From Escherichia coli (lineage in GTDB: Bacteria; Pseudomonadota; Gammaproteobacteria; Enterobacterales; Enterobacteriaceae): a DNA stretch of 46,580 nucleotides. The notes beneath the pieces were generated by a model, which saw nothing but the letters and a program-made list of their open reading frames with translations, was not told the origin of the DNA and made no database searches. The stretch is from assembly GCF_003334255.1 (NCBI RefSeq), contig NZ_QOWU01000043.1, one strand, 5' to 3'. Within the stretch, counting starts at the first letter, position 1, and every line of letters begins with the position of its first letter. This document shows, piece by piece, positions 99-28,823 of the stretch. Made by a program: the position numbers and the translations under genes.

Positions 99-1517
99 TC
101 AGACGCCGTAACGTTCGCACCAGCCAAGAATGGCTTTCTCGAAGCAGGCAAAAGGTGGATGCACAATGCCCGCGCCAATCATGCCGACGCCCGCATCTTT
201 ATGGGCGATGGCGGTGTTGATCACCGGCAGAATGCCGCTGCTACCCACGCGGGTGATGTCGATTGCCGACGGCACGCCCATAAAACCGAGCAGCGGAATG
301 GTGACGTTGGGGTTTTCACCGAGGGTGATTTCGCGCATCTGACGGGAGAAATCAATAGCTTCTTCCACCGTGCCGCCCACCAGCGCGACGATAGCGGGCG
401 CGGTCGCCATAGCAAATCCGCCAATACCGTAGGTTTCGGTGATGGCGCTGTCGCCGATATCCAGCCCCGAATCTTCCGGCTTATAACCGGCAAACATCGG
501 GCCGATCACCTGCTGCGCCGGGCCGGTAAACCATTGTCCCGGCAGGCCGCTGACCCGCAGGCCGAACTCGACGCCGTTACGCGCCATGGTGGTGACCACG
601 GTGCTGTATTCGATGCCATGCGCCGCATCCATCGCCGCTTTACACATCGCCATCCACGTCGGGCCGGAGAAGTAGTCGCTGCTGGCGACAAACTCAAACA
701 CTTCGCGCTGTTGCTCGACGGAATAACCCGCCTGAATAATCCCCGGCGTCAGCGCCTGAATCAGCAGTGTCGTCCCGGCGTTATTGCGGTTATGGCACTC
801 ATCGCCCATATGCAGCGCCTGCGCCAGCATTAAGCGCAGATCGATTTCGCCGATAATTTTCATCGCGTCGCGCAGTATTGGTCCCTGCACATCACGCATC
901 CAGTTCAGGCGGTCAATCACGCTCTGGTCGTTAGCGCCCATACGCAAAATCTTCGCCATCTGCTCGCTCATGTTGGTATAAGCGATGTTGCCGTAGGTTT
1001 TGTTTTTTACGATGTGCATAAACATCGAGGCCGAGGTAACACCCGCCATCGATCCCACGCAGTCGTGCTCGTGACACGGCGAGAAGGTGATCTCCCCGGA
1101 AGCCGCCAGTTCAGCCGCCTCGTCGAGATCTTTCGCCAGTCCTTCGAACACCAGCGCTCCGGTGACCGCGCCTTTCATCGCGCCGCACATTTTTTCCCAG
1201 GTGATCGGCGGCCCGGCGTGAAGAATGGTTTTCGCCGTCATGCCCGGCACCACGTTAATCGCCTGATCAAAACCAATCAGCACCGGATGCGACTGGATAA
1301 TACGCTCCAGCGCCTGCTGGTTAGCGGCGGCGATTTTGTCCGCCAGCGGCGAATCGGCAATGTTATCCAGCGCCTGCACCACCTGCATATTGCCCTGCCC
1401 CGGCGGCGTCCAGTCGAGTTGAGTCACTTCTACATGCTGCTTTTTCAGGTCATCGCTAAACATGGCGATGCCGACGTTAATAACGTTCAATGGTTGGCTA
1501 AACAGTGACTGGCTCAT
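99..1517 (-). CDS. yahG: DUF1116 family protein YahG (paralogue of YlbE/AllG)
   Basis: 472-aa ORF; protein recognised from recall as E. coli YahG; start overlaps yahF stop (ATGA junction at 1517). Confidence 0.9.
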   Translation of the reverse strand: MSQSLFSQPLNVINVGIAMFSDDLKKQHVEVTQLDWTPPGQGNMQVVQALDNIADSPLADKIAAANQQALERIIQSHPVLIGFDQAINVVPGMTAKTILHAGPPITWEKMCGAMKGAVTGALVFEGLAKDLDEAAELAASGEITFSPCHEHDCVGSMAGVTSASMFMHIVKNKTYGNIAYTNMSEQMAKILRMGANDQSVIDRLNWMRDVQGPILRDAMKIIGEIDLRLMLAQALHMGDECHNRNNAGTTLLIQALTPGIIQAGYSVEQQREVFEFVASSDYFSGPTWMAMCKAAMDAAHGIEYSTVVTTMARNGVEFGLRVSGLPGQWFTGPAQQVIGPMFAGYKPEDSGLDIGDSAITETYGIGGFAMATAPAIVALVGGTVEEAIDFSRQMREITLGENPNVTIPLLGFMGVPSAIDITRVGSSGILPVINTAIAHKDAGVGMIGAGIVHPPFACFEKAILGWCERYGV

Positions 1518-3064
1518 CAGGCTTCCTCCCCTTTGCAGATAAATTCACGCGCCAGCAATCCGGTATTGGTGCTGCTGCTCGCCAGAATCACTCCGGCATC
1601 AAGCAGCATCTGGCTTTGTTGTTCTAACGATGGCGTATCAAGATCGGTACCCAGCACATAGGCGAGAATGATCAACTCGCGTCCTTCGGCAGCGGCGATC
1701 GCTTTCGCTTCTTTGATCGTCTCGATGGTGGAGCCGACCGGATCTTCATGCGATCCAAATCCGAGCACAAAATCCATCACGATCACCGCCACTTCTGGAT
1801 CGCGCGCCTCTTCGATCAAGCGACTGATGCGGTTGGTGGGGTCAATCATCGGGTGCGGCTTGCCGTTGGTGAAGTCGTCATCGCCAAAGTCGAGGAAGGT
1901 GTGTTTGATGCTGCGGTTGATATCTTTCAGGCGGAATTCCGGATCGGGCTGAATGTTGCTGTAGACATCGCCATGTTTTTCCATCACCGCGAACATGGTT
2001 TCGTCGCACAGCGTGCCGCCGCAGAACAGGCCACGAATGTATTTCTGCTGCGGTTGCAGACGCGCACGCACATCCGCAATCAACGGCTGGTTAAGCGTAT
2101 GCAGGTCGAGATTTTCCTGTTTCACGCCGGAGAGCATCACCGCTTTTAGCGCTGCCTCTTTGGTGCCGCGGGCAAACTGTAGCCCCTGCTCATCCACTGG
2201 CGTTTCGCCACGATCGAGGAAGCAGACGACCACCGGCTTGCGGCAGGCGCGCGCACGTTCCAGCACTTTGCGGGCCACCGCAGGCGCAGGCGGTTTGGAG
2301 ATAAGCGCAATGATTTCAGTTTGCGGATCGTTTTCCAGCATCCCGATGGCGTCGAGCATCATCAGGCCGCCGATTTTCTCGCTCAGGTCGCGCCCGCCGG
2401 TGCCAATCAGTTGCGAAACGCCGCCGCCAAATTCATGAATGCGGACGCTCAACTCCTGACTGCCGGTGCCGGATGCGCCAACAATACCGATGTTGCCGCG
2501 ACGCACGGCGTTACCAAAACAGAGCGCCGCGCCGTTGATAATCGCCGTGCCACAGTCTGGCCCCATCATCAGCAGCCCTTTTTCGTGGGCCAGTTGCTTG
2601 AGCGCCAGTTCATCTTCAACTGAGACGTTATCGGAAAACAGCATCACGTTGAGATCGTTTTGCAGCGCCTGACGCGCTTCGCGAGCGGCAAACAGACCGT
2701 TGACCGAAATCACCGCCAGGTTACTTTCCGGGATATGCTTTTTGGCGCTGCCAATAGTGGCGTAACGCGCCTCGTGCGAGCCGCTTTGCGCTTTGGTGTT
2801 GAACAGTTCTTCAATCTCCACCAGCAACTGCTCGTTGTCCGCACCCGATTTACCATTGATGACAATCATCAGGTCGCCGTTTTTCGCCTGCTCCAGCTCC
2901 GGCGTCAGCAGTCCTAAATTCTTCAGCACGCCTTTATTCATTTCGGTCGCCATCGCCACAAATGCCTGCTCGACGCCGTCGAGTTTATTTGCACGCGTGG
3001 AGATAGACATCAGCGAGACAGAATCAAAATAGGTATTCGGTTTAATGACTATTTTAACTGACAT
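1517..3064 (-). CDS. yahF: FdrA-like CoA-binding / succinyl-CoA synthetase alpha-like protein YahF
   Basis: 515-aa ORF with glycine-rich CoA-ligase-like motifs (GIVGASGTG, GGRD); recognised as YahF; overlaps yahE by 11 nt. Confidence 0.9.
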   Translation of the reverse strand: MSVKIVIKPNTYFDSVSLMSISTRANKLDGVEQAFVAMATEMNKGVLKNLGLLTPELEQAKNGDLMIVINGKSGADNEQLLVEIEELFNTKAQSGSHEARYATIGSAKKHIPESNLAVISVNGLFAAREARQALQNDLNVMLFSDNVSVEDELALKQLAHEKGLLMMGPDCGTAIINGAALCFGNAVRRGNIGIVGASGTGSQELSVRIHEFGGGVSQLIGTGGRDLSEKIGGLMMLDAIGMLENDPQTEIIALISKPPAPAVARKVLERARACRKPVVVCFLDRGETPVDEQGLQFARGTKEAALKAVMLSGVKQENLDLHTLNQPLIADVRARLQPQQKYIRGLFCGGTLCDETMFAVMEKHGDVYSNIQPDPEFRLKDINRSIKHTFLDFGDDDFTNGKPHPMIDPTNRISRLIEEARDPEVAVIVMDFVLGFGSHEDPVGSTIETIKEAKAIAAAEGRELIILAYVLGTDLDTPSLEQQSQMLLDAGVILASSSTNTGLLAREFICKGEEA

Positions 3065-3917
3065 AATTCCCTCCGTAGGTTTGGCTCAGCACACAACCAT
3101 CGGCCATGCCATACAGCATGTCGCAGCCGGAACTGGAGCCAATATGTTTAATTTTTTCTATTGCCTGAGTTGCGTTCCCAGGGATGTCATAAATAATGTT
3201 GTGAATAAAACGATGAATATTTTCCCGGCAGCGTTGTTGTAATGCGGCTTCCAGCGTTATGGCACTTAATAATGTGGTATTATTTTTGCCGCGTTGCAGA
3301 CCGAGATAAAATTCCTCTTTGTATTTTTCCGCCGGATGCCCGGGAATAAATAAAATAAGCGCCAGACCTGTTAAATAATCGTCGGCTGATGGCGTAAGGC
3401 CAATCCCTAACCCCATCATACTGGCGACCGCTGAGGCGATATTTTGTTTATCGTTTACGGCCTGAATAACTGCCCGTCGTTTAATATGTAATTCTTTATT
3501 TAACGCCTGATAAAACGGATTATCGCCGCGATAATTAAACAGGGTTTCATTTTCCCCCAGGTGCTGATGAATAATGTCGTGCCACTGTAGCCAGGCGATA
3601 AGGTGAAAATTCACAGCGGTCATTTGCAAGGTTGGGGACAGCCAACGCCGACAACGACTCATCTCTATATGAAGATGTTGACCAACCGTAATACCTTGAT
3701 CGTCAAACTGAACCTTATCACCATGCCGGAACAGATCATCAAAGTGAGTGAGTGCCAACCGACAACTGTTTGGCGCATTGTCGTACTCTTCACAAAGCAG
3801 CGTCAGCAACTGCTGGCGAGCCGGGAGTGCGATATTTACCGCTCTGGCAAAGACCTGTTCAACCTGTCCTTGCCCCCGCTGCGCCAGAAAATCCGCATCC
3901 GCAGTTAGCGCCCACAC
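3054..3917 (-). CDS. yahE: DUF2877 family protein YahE (paralogue of YlbF/AllH)
   Basis: 287-aa ORF in operon arrangement with yahF and yahG; recognised as YahE. Confidence 0.85.
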   Translation of the reverse strand: MWALTADADFLAQRGQGQVEQVFARAVNIALPARQQLLTLLCEEYDNAPNSCRLALTHFDDLFRHGDKVQFDDQGITVGQHLHIEMSRCRRWLSPTLQMTAVNFHLIAWLQWHDIIHQHLGENETLFNYRGDNPFYQALNKELHIKRRAVIQAVNDKQNIASAVASMMGLGIGLTPSADDYLTGLALILFIPGHPAEKYKEEFYLGLQRGKNNTTLLSAITLEAALQQRCRENIHRFIHNIIYDIPGNATQAIEKIKHIGSSSGCDMLYGMADGCVLSQTYGGNYVS

Positions 3918-3956: not shown

Positions 3957-4562
3957 TTATGCACCTGCGGCAATCAGTAACTGCGCAATCTCTTCAAAGC
4001 CCCGTTCCCGCGCCAGTTCCAGTGGCGTTTTGCCATATTTATCGGTCAGATGCGGGCTGGCACCGTGTTCCAGCAATAACTGCACAATCGCCTGCTGTTT
4101 AATACCACCATCATTAAGCACAATCGCTTCCAGTAGCGGCGTCCAGCCTACATGGTTGGTCTGGTTAACGTTAATCTCCGTATGCGCCAAAAGCTCTTTT
4201 ACAATACTTAAATGGCCTTTTTCACAGGCAGGCGTCAGGCCGACACCGCCAAAACGGGTTACGCAATTAAGATCGGGTTTAGCCGGTAAAATAATTCGTA
4301 GTAGCGTTAAATCATCGTTCAGACAGCTAATTAAAAAAGGATTTAAACAGGTATGATCTTGCTTATTAATATCCGCTCCGGCATCAATTAATGCCTGAAC
4401 GCAAGCATATTGCTGATATAAACTTGCCAGCGTAATTGCCGTTTTCCCCTGACGATCGCAGGTATTAATATCGACACCCAGCGCAAGGCAGGTTTTTACT
4501 TTATCGATATCACCCTGTTGTGCAGCCAATAAATAGTCGGCAGGTAGATTTTTTATACTCAT
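3957..4562 (-). CDS. yahD: ankyrin-repeat protein YahD
   Basis: 201-aa ORF with tandem ankyrin-like repeats (GKTAITLAS...LIDAGADIN; GWTPLLEAI...LLEHGASP; GKTPLELA). Confidence 0.9.
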   Translation of the reverse strand: MSIKNLPADYLLAAQQGDIDKVKTCLALGVDINTCDRQGKTAITLASLYQQYACVQALIDAGADINKQDHTCLNPFLISCLNDDLTLLRIILPAKPDLNCVTRFGGVGLTPACEKGHLSIVKELLAHTEINVNQTNHVGWTPLLEAIVLNDGGIKQQAIVQLLLEHGASPHLTDKYGKTPLELARERGFEEIAQLLIAAGA

Positions 4563-4665
4563 TCACATTCCCCTGGTTTTTGTGGCTGTTTTCGATGAAT
4601 TGAGAATAGCAACGATAATCTGATAAAAGAACCCGCTTAAATTTAATTCGCCGTATCTCGCCTTT

Positions 4666-4686
4666 TTGTTGAATAATATTCAACAA
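4666..4686. promoter_or_regulatory. 21-bp perfect palindrome TTGTTGAATA-A-TATTCAACAA in the yahD/yahC divergent intergenic region; candidate operator
   Basis: Direct read of sequence; function not established. Confidence 0.4.
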
Positions 4687-4819
4687 TCTTTTCGCAGTGT
4701 GCGGTAGTGCAATATTTGTTTCTTTGACCCGATACCCTTTCACTCAATCAGGTTTTATTTCTCTATAGTCTGCACATGTAAGAGTAGCTTTCGTCCATGT
4801 CTAACCAGAGGGGAACAAG

Positions 4820-5317
4820 ATGAACGGACTCACGGCAACGGGTGTCACCGTCGGTATTTGTGCAGGGCTTTGGCAGTTAGTGTCTTCACATGTCGGGCTC
4901 TCTCAAGGATGGGAATTATTAGGAACCATTGGCTTCGTCGCCTTTTGCAGTTTTTATGCCGCAGGCGGCGGTAAATCGGGGTTTATCAGAAGTCTGGCGG
5001 TTAATTATTCCGGGATGGTGTGGGCGTTTTTCGCCGCGCTGACTGCTGGTTGGCTGGCCTCTGTAAGTGGACTGTCCGCGTTCTGGGCGAGCGTAATTAC
5101 TACCGTACCCTTCTCGGCGGTAGTGGTCTGGCAAGGGCGTTTCTGGTTACTGTCCTTTATTCCCGGTGGCTTTCTCGGCATGACGCTGTTTTTTGCCAGC
5201 GGGATGAACTGGACGGTGACGTTACTGGGTTTTCTGGCGGGTAACTGCGTGGGGGTAATTTCAGAATATGGTGGACAAAAATTAAGCGAAGCGACGACTA
5301 AACGCGACGGGTATTAA
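4820..5317 (+). CDS. yahC: inner membrane protein YahC
   Basis: 165-aa hydrophobic ORF, multiple predicted transmembrane segments; recognised as YahC. Confidence 0.85.
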   Translation: MNGLTATGVTVGICAGLWQLVSSHVGLSQGWELLGTIGFVAFCSFYAAGGGKSGFIRSLAVNYSGMVWAFFAALTAGWLASVSGLSAFWASVITTVPFSAVVVWQGRFWLLSFIPGGFLGMTLFFASGMNWTVTLLGFLAGNCVGVISEYGGQKLSEATTKRDGY

Positions 5318-5408
5318 AAGTTATTCAAAAATGATTATCTATCTTTAACCGATACCTCTACAGTCATAGCTGGAGAAATTCATAGTAGATAATGGCGAGA
5401 ATGGTTTA

Positions 5409-6341
5409 ATGAACTCAATTTTTACCGAAGAGAATCTGTTGGCATTTACTACCGCTGCGCGTTTTGGCAGCTTCAGTAAAGCCGCAGAAGAGTTGGGTTT
5501 AACCACTTCCGCCATTAGCTACACCATTAAGCGTATGGAGACGGGGCTGGATGTGGTGCTGTTCACTCGCAGTACCCGCAGCATTGAGTTAACGGAGTCC
5601 GGGCGTTATTTTTTCCGCAAAGCTACCGACCTGCTGAATGATTTTTATGCCATCAAACGCAGTATCGATACTATTTCGCAGGGCATAGAAGCGCGTGTGC
5701 GCATTTGTATTAATCAGCTGCTTTATACGCCCAAACACACCGCACGCTTGTTACAGGTGCTGAAAAAGCAGTTTCCTACCTGCCAGATTACCGTCACCAC
5801 CGAAGTGTATAACGGCGTCTGGGATGCGATTATTAATAATCAGGCCAATATCGCCATCGGCGCACCCGATACACTACTGGACGGCGGCGGTATTGATTAC
5901 ACTGAAATTGGCGCGATTCGCTGGGCTTTTGCTATCGCCCCGGATCACCCGTTAGCCTTTGTGCCGGAACCCATCGCCGAAAGCCAACTGCGTCTCTACC
6001 CTAATATTATGGTGGAGGACACCGCGCATACGATTAATAAAAAAGTGGGCTGGTTGCTGCACGGGCAGGAGTCAATTCTGGTGCCAGATTTCAACACCAA
6101 ATGTCAGTGCCAGATTTTAGGTGAAGGAATTGGTTTTTTGCCGGATTACATGGTCCGTGAGGCGATGACGCAATCCCTGCTGGTTACCCGACAAATCCAT
6201 AATCCGCGCCAGGATTCGCGCATGTTACTGGCGACTCAGCATTCTGCTACGGGTCAGGTGACGCAGTGGATTAAAAAACAATTTGCGCCAAATGGCATAT
6301 TAACGGGGATCTATCAGGATTTACTGCATCGGGAGAATTAA
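5409..6341 (+). CDS. yahB: LysR-family transcriptional regulator YahB
   Basis: 310-aa ORF; N-terminal LysR helix-turn-helix (FSKAAEELGLTTSAISYTIKRME) plus substrate-binding domain. Confidence 0.9.
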   Translation: MNSIFTEENLLAFTTAARFGSFSKAAEELGLTTSAISYTIKRMETGLDVVLFTRSTRSIELTESGRYFFRKATDLLNDFYAIKRSIDTISQGIEARVRICINQLLYTPKHTARLLQVLKKQFPTCQITVTTEVYNGVWDAIINNQANIAIGAPDTLLDGGGIDYTEIGAIRWAFAIAPDHPLAFVPEPIAESQLRLYPNIMVEDTAHTINKKVGWLLHGQESILVPDFNTKCQCQILGEGIGFLPDYMVREAMTQSLLVTRQIHNPRQDSRMLLATQHSATGQVTQWIKKQFAPNGILTGIYQDLLHREN

Positions 6342-6382: not shown

Positions 6383-7471
6383 TCAACCACCTGCTTTCAT
6401 TACCCATTCAGAGATAAATTTATTACCCGGTACTGGCGGAGAGTACAAATAGCCCTGCAAAAAGTGAACGCCTTTACCGATCATTAAATCCGCCTGCTCC
6501 TGGGTTTCTACCCCTTCCGCCACGATACTCAGACCAGGCTTACGCGCTAGTTCGACAATATTGTCCACAATATGACCGGAGATTTCGTCGACACTCGCCA
6601 TTTGCACAAATGACTTATCGATCTTAATAAAATCGACCGGGAACGCCTGCAAGTAACGATAGGTCGCATAACCCGTACCAAAGTCATCCAGCGCAAAGGT
6701 AATGTTGTGCTGATGAAGGCTGTCAAATATCGCTCTGGCTTCTGGCGTTACCGGAATAGGGTTACGTTCCGTTAGCTCGAGAACCAGCTTGATTTTATCG
6801 TTACCTAATTTATTAACCAGGTTCAGACACTCTTTTTCAAATCCCGCTGCCAAAAAACAACCCGCCGAGACGTTGATGCCAATATGGAAATTGTCCGGCA
6901 GCAAATGTTTTACCGGCATCAGAATATCCGCAGTCTGTTTCATCAGTTGGCGGGTCATTATGACAATAAGACCGGATGACTCCGCCAGAGGAATAAACTG
7001 ATCCGGTGGGATAATTCCCGTTTGTGGATGTTCCCAGCGGACAAGCACCTCACAGCCCGTCAGTACCCCAGTCTGCGCGCAGAAAACCGGTTGGATCCAC
7101 GGTTTGAATTCGTGGTTTTCCAACGCCAGACTGATGGCTTCAGGCGTGACGATATGGTGATAGTGATTATCATTAATATATCTGTGACTATTACTCCCCG
7201 TGGCGGATATGATCTCCGGATTGTACTGAAAGAAAATATCGCGCCAGAAAGTAATATCGCTCTGAATCCCCAGTTTCTCAAAGAGCTGTTTCTTTTGATG
7301 TGAAATTGTCTTTGCACTGCGATTTCTGTACTGTGATATTTCTGTTACAGACATTCCCTGCATCAGCAGCTTGAGTAGCAGTCGTTCTTTCTCGGATACG
7401 CTACCAGGCAATGACAAATGAACCGTTGTACCGAACTCTTGCAGAAAAACACGAAAATCACATGAATTCAT
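6383..7471 (-). CDS. pdeL: c-di-GMP phosphodiesterase PdeL (LuxR-type HTH + EAL domain)
   Basis: ORF 6383..7477; N-terminal LuxR-type HTH and C-terminal EAL domain (ELTE, DDFGTGY motifs); start placed at third codon to give the 362-aa K-12 form, 7477 is an alternative. Confidence 0.9.
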   Translation of the reverse strand: MNSCDFRVFLQEFGTTVHLSLPGSVSEKERLLLKLLMQGMSVTEISQYRNRSAKTISHQKKQLFEKLGIQSDITFWRDIFFQYNPEIISATGSNSHRYINDNHYHHIVTPEAISLALENHEFKPWIQPVFCAQTGVLTGCEVLVRWEHPQTGIIPPDQFIPLAESSGLIVIMTRQLMKQTADILMPVKHLLPDNFHIGINVSAGCFLAAGFEKECLNLVNKLGNDKIKLVLELTERNPIPVTPEARAIFDSLHQHNITFALDDFGTGYATYRYLQAFPVDFIKIDKSFVQMASVDEISGHIVDNIVELARKPGLSIVAEGVETQEQADLMIGKGVHFLQGYLYSPPVPGNKFISEWVMKAGG

Positions 7472-8305
7472 GAACACACCTTTATCTTTTATCGCTGTTC
7501 AGTATGAGTGATTACCTGTCGATTCCTGAGCACACATAAGGGGTAACCATAAACATCAGGGATGCCATACGTATAACATCCCACATCACTATCAAGAAGA
7601 TTATCTTTACCTCTGATGCTCGCTCAAAAACAGTTACGCTAAATACCTTAAAAAGGTAATCACAAGTCAAACTCAGGAGATAATCACGCAAGAATGCAAT
7701 ATTAAAATTCAGATACTCATTTTTGGTAATAAAGAAGTAGTTGGACTATTTCAATATTTATAATTTCCCACTACATACTGGCATCCATTCATGAGCAAAG
7801 GCGCATTATATGAATTTAACAATCCAGATCAACTGAAAATACCTCTCCCTCATAAACACATAGCGTCAACATTCAATGACATAATGAGTAAAGATGTTGG
7901 TTATGCATACGTATCATTACTCTATGCCTGTCCCTTAAAAACCCACTCATTAAGACTGAATCCATTCAGCAAATGATAACCAATATTATAGCAATGCCAA
8001 TAAAAACAATATTTAAAACATTCAATAAAATATCACACACAGATAATTAAACCTTAAATAACAAATGGTTGCGTTAATTTCAGTTGATTTACGATACACA
8101 TTTCTCATGAATAATGCGTCATTTCAAATGATCAGCAATATTTACATTAAATAAGACTAAACTTATTGAACATTCGCAACAGCCCAAATGTAGGTTTTGG
8201 GCTGCAATAGTTCTTTTCTTTTTTATTATCTGTTGTCTGGTAATCATCAATAGATACTAAGGGCTTAACCGTATAGATATAACGTATCAAGAGGTAGGAG
8301 AAACA

Positions 8306-27953: not shown

Positions 27954-28823
27954 TGAGATAATTTCCTGATGAACGAATTAACGAACATAGGCAGACACAA
28001 ATAATGGCGTCTGCTTGTCAGAAAAACCGGGGATTTCCCGATTTCCTTTTCCGCAGAAAAGGAAATACCTTTATGTAAGAAAGTGCACCGCCACCTAATA
28101 TATCCAGTGCCTATAGCCACTCATCAGGTGGTTGGGCGCGGGATTATATTTTTATTTATGGGGGAAAATTTAGCTTTTTGTGCAAGTCATTAAATAGATA
28201 CCTAAGTTATATTTCTTACTCTGCGGACAGTGAATAATTCACTATTCAGAGTGAATAACAATGACCTGCCTTTAATTAAAACTATTGGAAATACGTCGAA
28301 ATAGGTATATATGCCAGGATAAACCAATATATTTTTTATGGATATTCATTTTCCTTCATCGGACTGTAAATTGCGGAGATATCGAACTTGCACTACCCAT
28401 CGCAACACTCAAACAGATTTATGAATTTCGTTCATAACCCCTGACAAATTCTGCCGTCTAATCGAGCTTTTCCCTTTACGTTATGCTTCTCATGAACGAT
28501 AACACAACTTGTTCATGAATTAACCATTCCGGATAAACTATGGGATCAAATTCAGGCATCGAAAGGAACTGGCTGGTTTCCGTTAATGGATTAAATATCT
28601 ATTATTCTCCCGAGAGTAAAACTATCAAATCAATGAGTAACCGATACAGCCTCACAAATTCTTTCAGATAATTAACCCGTCACTGCGGCACGTTCTCTCA
28701 TAAGGCGTGCCTGCAGTGTAATCCAGTATGTATCCGGCATAGTTGACGGTTTAATAGAACTCAATTCCTCTCCCAGGTCACCAACAACGATATCTTGTAT
28801 AACACCCCAGGAGATACGACATT

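Follow-up and report, generated by a model that had tools for sequence, protein, structure and literature searches.

A conserved 23-bp dyad upstream of yahD as a probable operator for the LysR-type regulator YahB of Escherichia coli

Between the divergently transcribed genes yahD (minus strand) and yahC (plus strand) of Escherichia coli lies a 21-bp perfect palindrome, and the locus raises a simple question: is this sequence a protein-binding site and, if so, which regulator reads it and which of the two promoters does it serve? The palindrome had been picked out in a stretch of 46,580 nucleotides (contig NZ_QOWU01000043.1 of assembly GCF_003334255.1; the whole stretch is called the window, and positions are window positions unless stated otherwise) by a sequence-only reading, which took it for an operator and drew attention to yahB, a LysR gene close by. 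The DNA of the window is like that of E. coli K-12 read in the opposite direction; subtracting a window coordinate from 339842 gives the one in MG1655 (version.3), which places the dyad at 335156-335176. The sequence and its complementarity were confirmed: TTGTTGAATAATATTCAACAA, at 4666-4686 inside the 257-bp gap, is a perfect dyad with 10-bp arms that are 100% complementary and a single central A at 4676. The elements needed first are listed here, the genes as in annotated E. coli records:

4666-4686, no strand: the reported 21-bp palindrome, the K-12-type allele (from the sequence)
3957-4562, minus strand: yahD, which encodes an ankyrin repeat protein and heads yahDEFG..., the proposed target operon
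4820-5317, plus strand: yahC, encoding a DUF1097 membrane protein, the divergent neighbour
5409-6341, plus strand: yahB, encoding a LysR-type regulator, the proposed partner of sites 1 and 2 described below

Palindromy was evaluated by shuffling the 46.6-kb window 200 times with its dinucleotides preserved. The shuffled sequences held on average 0.1 perfect palindromes with arms of at least 10 bp and a spacer of at most 1 nt, and 9% of them contained one or more. Palindromy by itself is only mildly unusual; the significance of the element comes from its conservation.

Orthologous loci were collected by scanning one genome per species with a YahC alignment, which yielded 19 loci in 7 genera (Escherichia spp., Citrobacter, Raoultella, Kluyvera, Klebsiella, Pseudocitrobacter and an 'Enterobacter'). 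The gene order, yahE-yahD divergent from yahC-yahB, was kept in the 18 loci that are long enough; the nineteenth is a 1.9-kb contig with only yahC and yahB. Another match, P0108, with a 53%-identical YahC, proved to be an E. coli assembly full of frameshifts and carried no information.

In the aligned intergenic regions two 9-bp arms, WTTRTTGAA and TTYAAYAAT, were conserved around a variable 5-bp centre. The mean column entropy was 0.27 bits in each arm, 1.16 bits in the centre and 0.64 bits when the full intergenic region was averaged; invariant and variable columns were arranged with mirror symmetry about 4676. Within the symmetric arms, the T at 4670 and the A at 4682, which bound the core TGAATAATATTCA at a distance of 11 intervening bases, were invariant in 19/19 loci. 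This T-N11-A geometry is a hallmark of the LysR family.

4665-4687, no strand: site 1, WTTRTTGAA-N5-TTYAAYAAT, with the T-N11-A core TGAA-N5-TTCA at 4670-4682 (from the alignment, the entropies and the distant yahB loci)
4674-4678, no strand: the five central bases of the dyad, free of constraint, which are TAATA in K-12, TGATG in the majority of E. coli and variable elsewhere

Conserved arms and a free centre in mirror symmetry are the footprint expected of a dimeric DNA-binding protein. The earlier suggestion of an operator, which had been made for the palindrome in a single genome, is therefore borne out by the arms kept in 19 loci of 7 genera, and the dyad is very probably the core of a protein-binding operator.

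The centre is also the place where strains of E. coli differ. Four divergent strains showed 3-4 differences from the window across the 257-bp gap, two of them at 4675 and 4678, and positions of the centre are the only common polymorphisms of the site within the species. The K-12 centre TAATA was found in 1538 of the 5085 E. coli genomes that have the region (~30%) and TGATG in 3254 of them (~64%); Escherichia sp. E1V33 and E. whittamii also carry TGATG. Since TGATG is present in most E. coli and in related species, the perfect 21-bp palindrome is, on this distribution, a derived minority allele, and the conserved unit is the element of 9+5+9 bp at 4665-4687. The G-to-A changes at 4675 and 4678 make the K-12 palindrome perfect and create a -10-like TAATAT on both strands. 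A single template switch (quasipalindrome correction) was considered as the origin of the K-12 allele and ruled out, because the two changes lie on opposite sides of the centre.

A symmetrised matrix was constructed from the orthologous copies of site 1 alone. It scored 34 bits at the dyad, and the sole other match of at least 10 bits in the window was found at 5310-5332, with 18.6 bits, a score reached in 1 of 100 shuffles. This second copy, TTnTTRAA-N5-TTYAAnAA, has the same structure as site 1 and occurs at the orthologous place in 19/19 loci, where it forms a near-invariant island (TTAAAAGTTATTCAAAAATGRTTGC) in an otherwise unalignable spacer. It is located directly upstream of a putative yahB promoter, and is proposed to be an autoregulatory site for yahB.

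5310-5332, no strand: site 2, the motif copy GGTATTAAAAGTTATTCAAAAAT, overlapping the yahC stop codon just upstream of yahB (matrix match)
5335-5364, plus strand: putative yahB promoter, TTATCT, an 18-nt spacer and TACAGT (TTGCCC-N18-TACATT in other genera), as read from the alignment

Around this second site, yahC is annotated as a frameshifted pseudogene in an E. coli O157:H7 genome (locus L022), and the yahC-yahB spacer is enlarged by GC-rich repeats resembling repetitive extragenic palindromic (REP) elements in Citrobacter (L006 and L012) and by hairpins in Raoultella. The pseudogene and the enlarged spacers are consistent with yahB having a promoter of its own.

The gene that accompanies the motif is yahB. 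It was present in 19/19 Enterobacterales loci and in clusters of Aeromonas, Pragia, Zophobihabitans, Pasteurella, Herminiimonas and Neisseria, each with the motif; yahC is absent from all of these latter clusters. The distant loci were scanned with the matrix over 9-21 kb each and gave the following arrangements (percentages are YahB identities):

Aeromonas cavernicola (84%): yahB directly divergent from yahD, no yahC; best match ATTGTTGAAAATAATTCAATAAT, 34.4 bits, its centre 116 bp from the yahD ATG as against 114 bp in E. coli
Pragia fontium (76%): yahD, an amidohydrolase gene and yahB on the same strand; site ATTGTTGAATAGTATTCAATAAT, 33.4 bits, the best in 21 kb, upstream of yahD
Zophobihabitans (74%): yahD operon divergent from yahB; best match 25.5 bits, in the shared gap
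Herminiimonas, a betaproteobacterium (71%): yahD, AllH-, AllF- and AllG-like genes, a gene of 517 aa, a carbamate kinase gene and yahB on the same strand; best match in 21 kb 24.7 bits, upstream of yahD
Pasteurella testudinis (61%): yahD to yahJ on the same strand with yahB inside; perfect palindrome ACCTTTGAATAAAATTCAAAGGT 120 bp from the yahD ATG, with a low matrix score but an identical core, TTGAA-N5-TTCAA
Neisseria sp. (58%): carbamate kinase gene divergent from yahB, then AllF/G/H-like genes; the four best matches in 21 kb all in the two gaps flanking yahB

The motif thus co-occurs with yahB in four orders of Gammaproteobacteria and in Betaproteobacteria, and the earlier pointer to this LysR gene, which had rested on its position nearby, gains weight from a T-N11-A box that travels with it. 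The order yahD, AllH-, AllF- and AllG-like genes is conserved in distant taxa. The cluster is also modular: Pragia has only yahD, the amidohydrolase gene and yahB; in Neisseria the ankyrin gene is missing and an MFS transporter gene is present in addition; and Zophobihabitans carries a fused AllH-AllF gene. The ankyrin protein YahD is usually encoded first in the operon.

Across the 19 loci, identity ranged over 91-99% for YahB, 72-99% for YahC, 71-98% for YahD and 56-95% for YahE. For the enteric genera outside Escherichia the values were 91-95% for YahB as against 72-83% for YahC, 71-81% for YahD and 56-63% for YahE. Such conservation of YahB, which extends to 84% in Aeromonas and 71% in the betaproteobacterium, suggests strong constraint and horizontal spread of the cluster. 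Residues 1-90, expected to include the helix-turn-helix DNA-binding domain, are 91-100% identical across the Enterobacterales loci. In the Pasteurella protein, residues 33 and 39, in the expected recognition-helix region, differ from those of E. coli, and the outer bases of the arms differ too.

A promoter and terminator consensus scan of both intergenic regions returned nothing at the thresholds applied, and promoters were read from conserved hexamers in the alignments. On the yahD side, the invariant block GAG.ATAGCAA (4602-4612) becomes TTGCTATnCTC in the direction of yahD: a TG, a single base and TAT.CT, which together form a putative extended -10 element. All loci retain the upstream TG and, within the hexamer, the T, the A and the last T. 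Inspection ruled out a sigma-54 element in the conserved TTGC block, as no GG is found at the required distance.

4603-4611, minus strand: putative extended -10 of yahD, TGcTATTCT on the minus strand (from the invariant block GAG.ATAGCAA)
4625-4652, no strand: the intergenic block of lowest entropy, AAAAGAACCCGCTTAAATTTAATTCGCC, at about -29 to -56 of the putative yahD promoter (from the lowest-entropy 9-mers)
4764-4769, plus strand: TATAGT, a conserved candidate for the yahC -10 hexamer (conserved block in the alignment)

The gap between the putative yahD -10 and the 23-mer was exactly 56 nt in 20 loci (the window, 18 other Enterobacterales loci and Aeromonas), and a hand count on the sequences gave the same 56 nt in Herminiimonas and Zophobihabitans. 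It was 57 nt in Pragia and 45 nt in Pasteurella, one helical turn shorter, measured to a TATAGT hexamer. The fixed spacing to the yahD -10, together with the persistence of the site in taxa without yahC, supports its assignment to the yahD promoter rather than to that of yahC. The sequence-only reading had placed the dyad in a joint yahD/yahC promoter region. A conserved 9+5+9 unit at the yahD promoter stands; the perfect palindromy on which that reading was built is a minority, lineage-specific allele, and the site would not belong to yahC.

The yahD transcription start is predicted near 4596, which would put the centre of site 1 at about -80. LysR recognition sites are typically centred between -55 and -80, with an activation site near -35. 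The block at 4625-4652, which is kept in Aeromonas and recognisable in Herminiimonas, lies where the activation site of a LysR-type transcriptional regulator would be expected, and may have that role.

Two CRP-like features were seen in these regions. In Pasteurella testudinis (locus L032, 4300-4510) the CRP consensus is matched perfectly twice at the yahD-like operon, by TGTGATGTTTGTCACA at about -41.5 and by TGTGATCAGCCTCACA, and two TTGAA-N5-TTCA dyads lie 33 bp apart; the CRP consensus at -41.5 is located between the dyad and the TATAGT hexamer and in effect replaces the enteric block at -29 to -56. In the yahD/yahC gap of the window, the block 4698-4713, TGTGCGGTAGTGCAAT (TGTGCGGTAGTGCACC in other genera), resembles the CRP site TGTGA-N6-TCACA; its centre is ~71.5 bp upstream of the start predicted from the TATAGT at 4764-4769, a class I position for yahC.

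The best NCBIfam matches of YahB were AllS (267 bits) and PunR (238 bits), both below the equivalog cut-offs, and all other LysR families scored below 80 bits. The PunR (YdhB) operator upstream of punC is an imperfect 23-bp palindrome, TsttwTCAAwAwwwTTGaaGGCA, which was predicted by phylogenetic footprinting and confirmed by chromatin immunoprecipitation with exonuclease treatment (ChIP-exo), fluorescence polarisation and electrophoretic mobility shift assay (EMSA); in the fluorescence polarisation assay binding occurred only with adenine present (PMC8376909). The yah site shares with this operator its length of 23 bp, an A/T-rich centre of 5 bp, the T-N11-A frame, TTsAA half-site cores and a place beside the regulator gene, and so has the geometry of the AllS/PunR type, TTsAA-N5-TTsAA, with G/C in place of C/G at the specificity base. 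TTGAA-N5-TTCAA in the yah site stands against TTCAA-N5-TTGAA in that of PunR, a swap at one symmetric position; there are differences in the outer bases as well, and the yah matrix gives the PunR probe -14 bits. PunR, in addition, controls a single divergent transporter gene.

AllS binds the divergent allD/allF gap and activates allFGHK (PMC12535856), and oxamate transcarbamylase is the product of allFGH (PMC11326118). The homologues of yahE, yahF and yahG are assigned by Pfam to the AllH, AllF and AllG families, and a carbamate-kinase-type gene then follows; on these labels, YahB with yahDEFG-I looks like a paralogous copy of the AllS and allFGHK arrangement. AllS is the top named family for YahB, and allFGHK encode paralogues of yahF/yahG/yahE and yahI. 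YahB is, however, not AllS, since its 267 bits fall short of the AllS equivalog cut-off of 372 bits, and allS does not lie beside allD/allF. The best matches of the yah matrix in the allD/allF gap were weak: one of 14.2 bits, outside the published -203/-144 EMSA fragment, and one of 11.4 bits, at its edge.

The locus also agrees with the general architecture of LysR systems in having an interrupted T-N11-A dyad upstream of a predicted promoter, the regulator gene in the locus, a conserved stretch over the predicted -35 region and a site at the putative promoter of the regulator, and in Aeromonas and Zophobihabitans yahB is directly divergent. It departs from that architecture in the predicted centre near -80 instead of the textbook -65, in the separation of yahB from the shared gap by yahC in Enterobacterales, where yahB has its own site, and in the several taxa that carry yahB inside the target operon.

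From the symmetric conservation, the fixed -10 spacing, the motif copy upstream of yahB and the association of the motif with yahB in distant taxa, we infer a model in which YahB would be the binder, activation the direction of regulation and a small molecule the effector, with start sites as predicted above. A pair of YahB dimers would bind the high-affinity T-N11-A site ~80 bp upstream of the yahD start, and the resulting tetramer would extend to the conserved block at about -29 to -56. On sensing the effector, YahB would then activate the extended -10 promoter of yahD-yahE-yahF-yahG(-yahI-yahJ), genes paralogous to allFGH-allK for oxamate transcarbamylase and carbamate kinase, and the motif copy at 5310-5332 would give autoregulation of yahB. 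The probability that site 1 is the YahB recognition site, with the yahD operon as its target, is put at about 0.7.

Several observations weigh against this assignment. The block at -29 to -56 does not resemble site 1 when scored with the matrix, and the centre at -80, itself based on a predicted -10, lies at the far end of the usual range for LysR recognition sites. A matrix scan found no clear site upstream of an orphan yahB orthologue in Providencia. The only public YahB experiment is a ChIP-exo study in glucose M9 of YahB carrying an 8-myc tag and expressed from the chromosomal copy under its native promoter: three weak sites were detected (signal/noise 1.3-2.0), all elsewhere and none at yahC/yahD (PMC8464067). 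A check of YahB ChIP data, which had been put forward together with the operator suggestion, therefore returned no peak at this locus. The yah genes were barely expressed in that study, with RNA-seq base means of 76 for yahB, 5.6 for yahC and 13 for yahD (PMC8464067), and the negative result may be due to low expression or, by analogy with PunR, to effector-dependent binding. A literature search found no paper that links yahB to a binding site, gives in vitro binding data for YahB or contains the dyad sequence.

A published ChIP-exo peak of another protein, YfeC, is labelled yahC (signal/noise 55.9, overlapping RNA polymerase). It maps to 4904-4935 of the window if the table uses older MG1655 coordinates, which we assume from the nearest-gene labels and the offset of 776 bp; the peak then falls within the yahC coding sequence, 84-115 nt from its start, and the dyad is over 200 bp away.

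The absence of a YahB peak at yahC/yahD would also fit a genuine operator of some other regulator, such as MetR, another LysR-type protein or a global factor, with YahB as a bystander. The MetR consensus is TGAA-N5-TTCA, and the Escherichia core TGAATAATATTCA matches it exactly, a further point against YahB; moreover, MetR and other global regulators exist in all taxa examined, so that phylogenetic breadth alone is not decisive. Conservation, however, covers 23 bp, beyond the 13-bp MetR core, and what is conserved in the flanks has no relation to MetR sites; most genera carry TTTAA and not TTCAA in the right half, the metR/metE region scores less than 3 bits on the yah matrix, and the neighbours are not methionine genes. 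The motif occurs twice in the window, both times beside yah genes, and accompanies yahB through rearrangements of gene order, whereas none of the other regulator genes shows a consistent linkage: pdeL is a neighbour in Escherichia alone, and a MarR gene in Herminiimonas alone. Another binder is accordingly unlikely, although it is the best of the alternatives to YahB.

A second alternative arises from the K-12 allele itself, whose TAATAT at 4674-4679, present by symmetry on the opposite strand and absent from the majority TGATG allele, might make the dyad a core promoter element, with the site overlapping a promoter instead of, or besides, being an operator. In a Reg-Seq preprint the yahC promoter of MG1655 is reported to show two sigma-factor patterns separated by ~100 bp (10.1101/2025.05.13.653802), and the TATAGT at 4764-4769 is ~90 bp from the dyad centre; the Reg-Seq patterns, however, could not be placed on the sequence. 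No suitable -35 or TG motif is found at the right distance from TAATAT, the consensus scan found no promoter, and a core promoter leaves the conservation of the arms unexplained in genera and strains whose centres lack the hexamer. We regard this role as improbable.

A third alternative takes the dyad for a nucleic-acid structure, be it an RNA hairpin, a terminator or a DNA cruciform. The folded RNA has a 9-bp stem of -7.1 kcal/mol (z = -3.4 against shuffles), and a short T-rich TCTTTTC follows the dyad on the plus strand; but this is a weak, AU-rich stem that contains two G-C pairs, no terminator was returned by the scan, the plus strand has no gene whose transcription would run into the dyad, and the loop is 5 nt in most E. 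coli. An A-C mismatch in one arm pair of 6/19 sequences (five genus-level representatives) indicates that pairing is not kept by compensation, a search of Rfam at E<=1 gave no match, and the fixed helical phasing to the -10 hexamer points to protein-DNA geometry, so that a structural role is very improbable.

Least credible of all is a functionless AT-rich palindrome or an ArgR site: palindromes of this kind are expected at 0.1 per window, but chance is refuted by symmetric conservation in at least 12 genera, the fixed promoter spacing and the second conserved copy, and the resemblance of the TGAAT/ATTCA halves to the ARG box (TGAAT-N4-ATTCA) ends at the spacing, for the 18-bp ARG box requires four bases at its centre and a partner box at a distance of 3 bp, whereas the dyad has three central bases, lacks the tandem partner and does not conserve the T of TGAAT or the ATTCA half in other genera, so that the sequence-only reading was right to withhold an assignment to ArgR.

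The remaining annotated genes around the locus, from E. coli records, and two further perfect palindromes of the window are given for completeness:

1517-3064, minus strand: yahF/fdrA-like gene
3054-3917, minus strand: yahE
6383-7477, minus strand: pdeL
28041-28066: ATTTCCTTTTC-CGCA-GAAAAGGAAAT, a perfect palindrome with 11-bp arms
29503-29520: GTTATGTTATAACATAAC, a perfect palindrome of 18 bp without a spacer

YahB is a regulator of E. coli K-12 without a known target, for which genome-wide ChIP-exo gave nothing convincing, and yahC-yahJ is one of the dense uncharacterised gene clusters of the K-12 genome (PMC11551758). The YahB operator proposed here is an ordinary kind of element and not a new one. 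The conserved 23-bp site, its phasing to the promoter and the copy at yahB nevertheless provide a first defined, testable target for YahB and an entry to the cluster. The swap of one base pair relative to the PunR operator illustrates neatly, on a small scale, how LysR paralogues avoid sharing their sites, and the parallel between AllS with allFGHK and YahB with yahEFG-yahI suggests the chemistry to look for. As a tentative extension, to which we give clearly less than even odds, YahB and its operator might switch a second AllFGH-type pathway of carbamoyltransferase, carbamate kinase and amidohydrolase, yielding ATP and ammonia from a ureido or carbamoyl substrate, a module moving between Gamma- and Betaproteobacteria, with YahB binding DNA only in the presence of its effector. 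If this were true, effector-only binding, as in PunR, would explain a ChIP-exo experiment without targets, and the operator would be a handle for finding the inducer, and hence the substrate, of yahD-yahJ.

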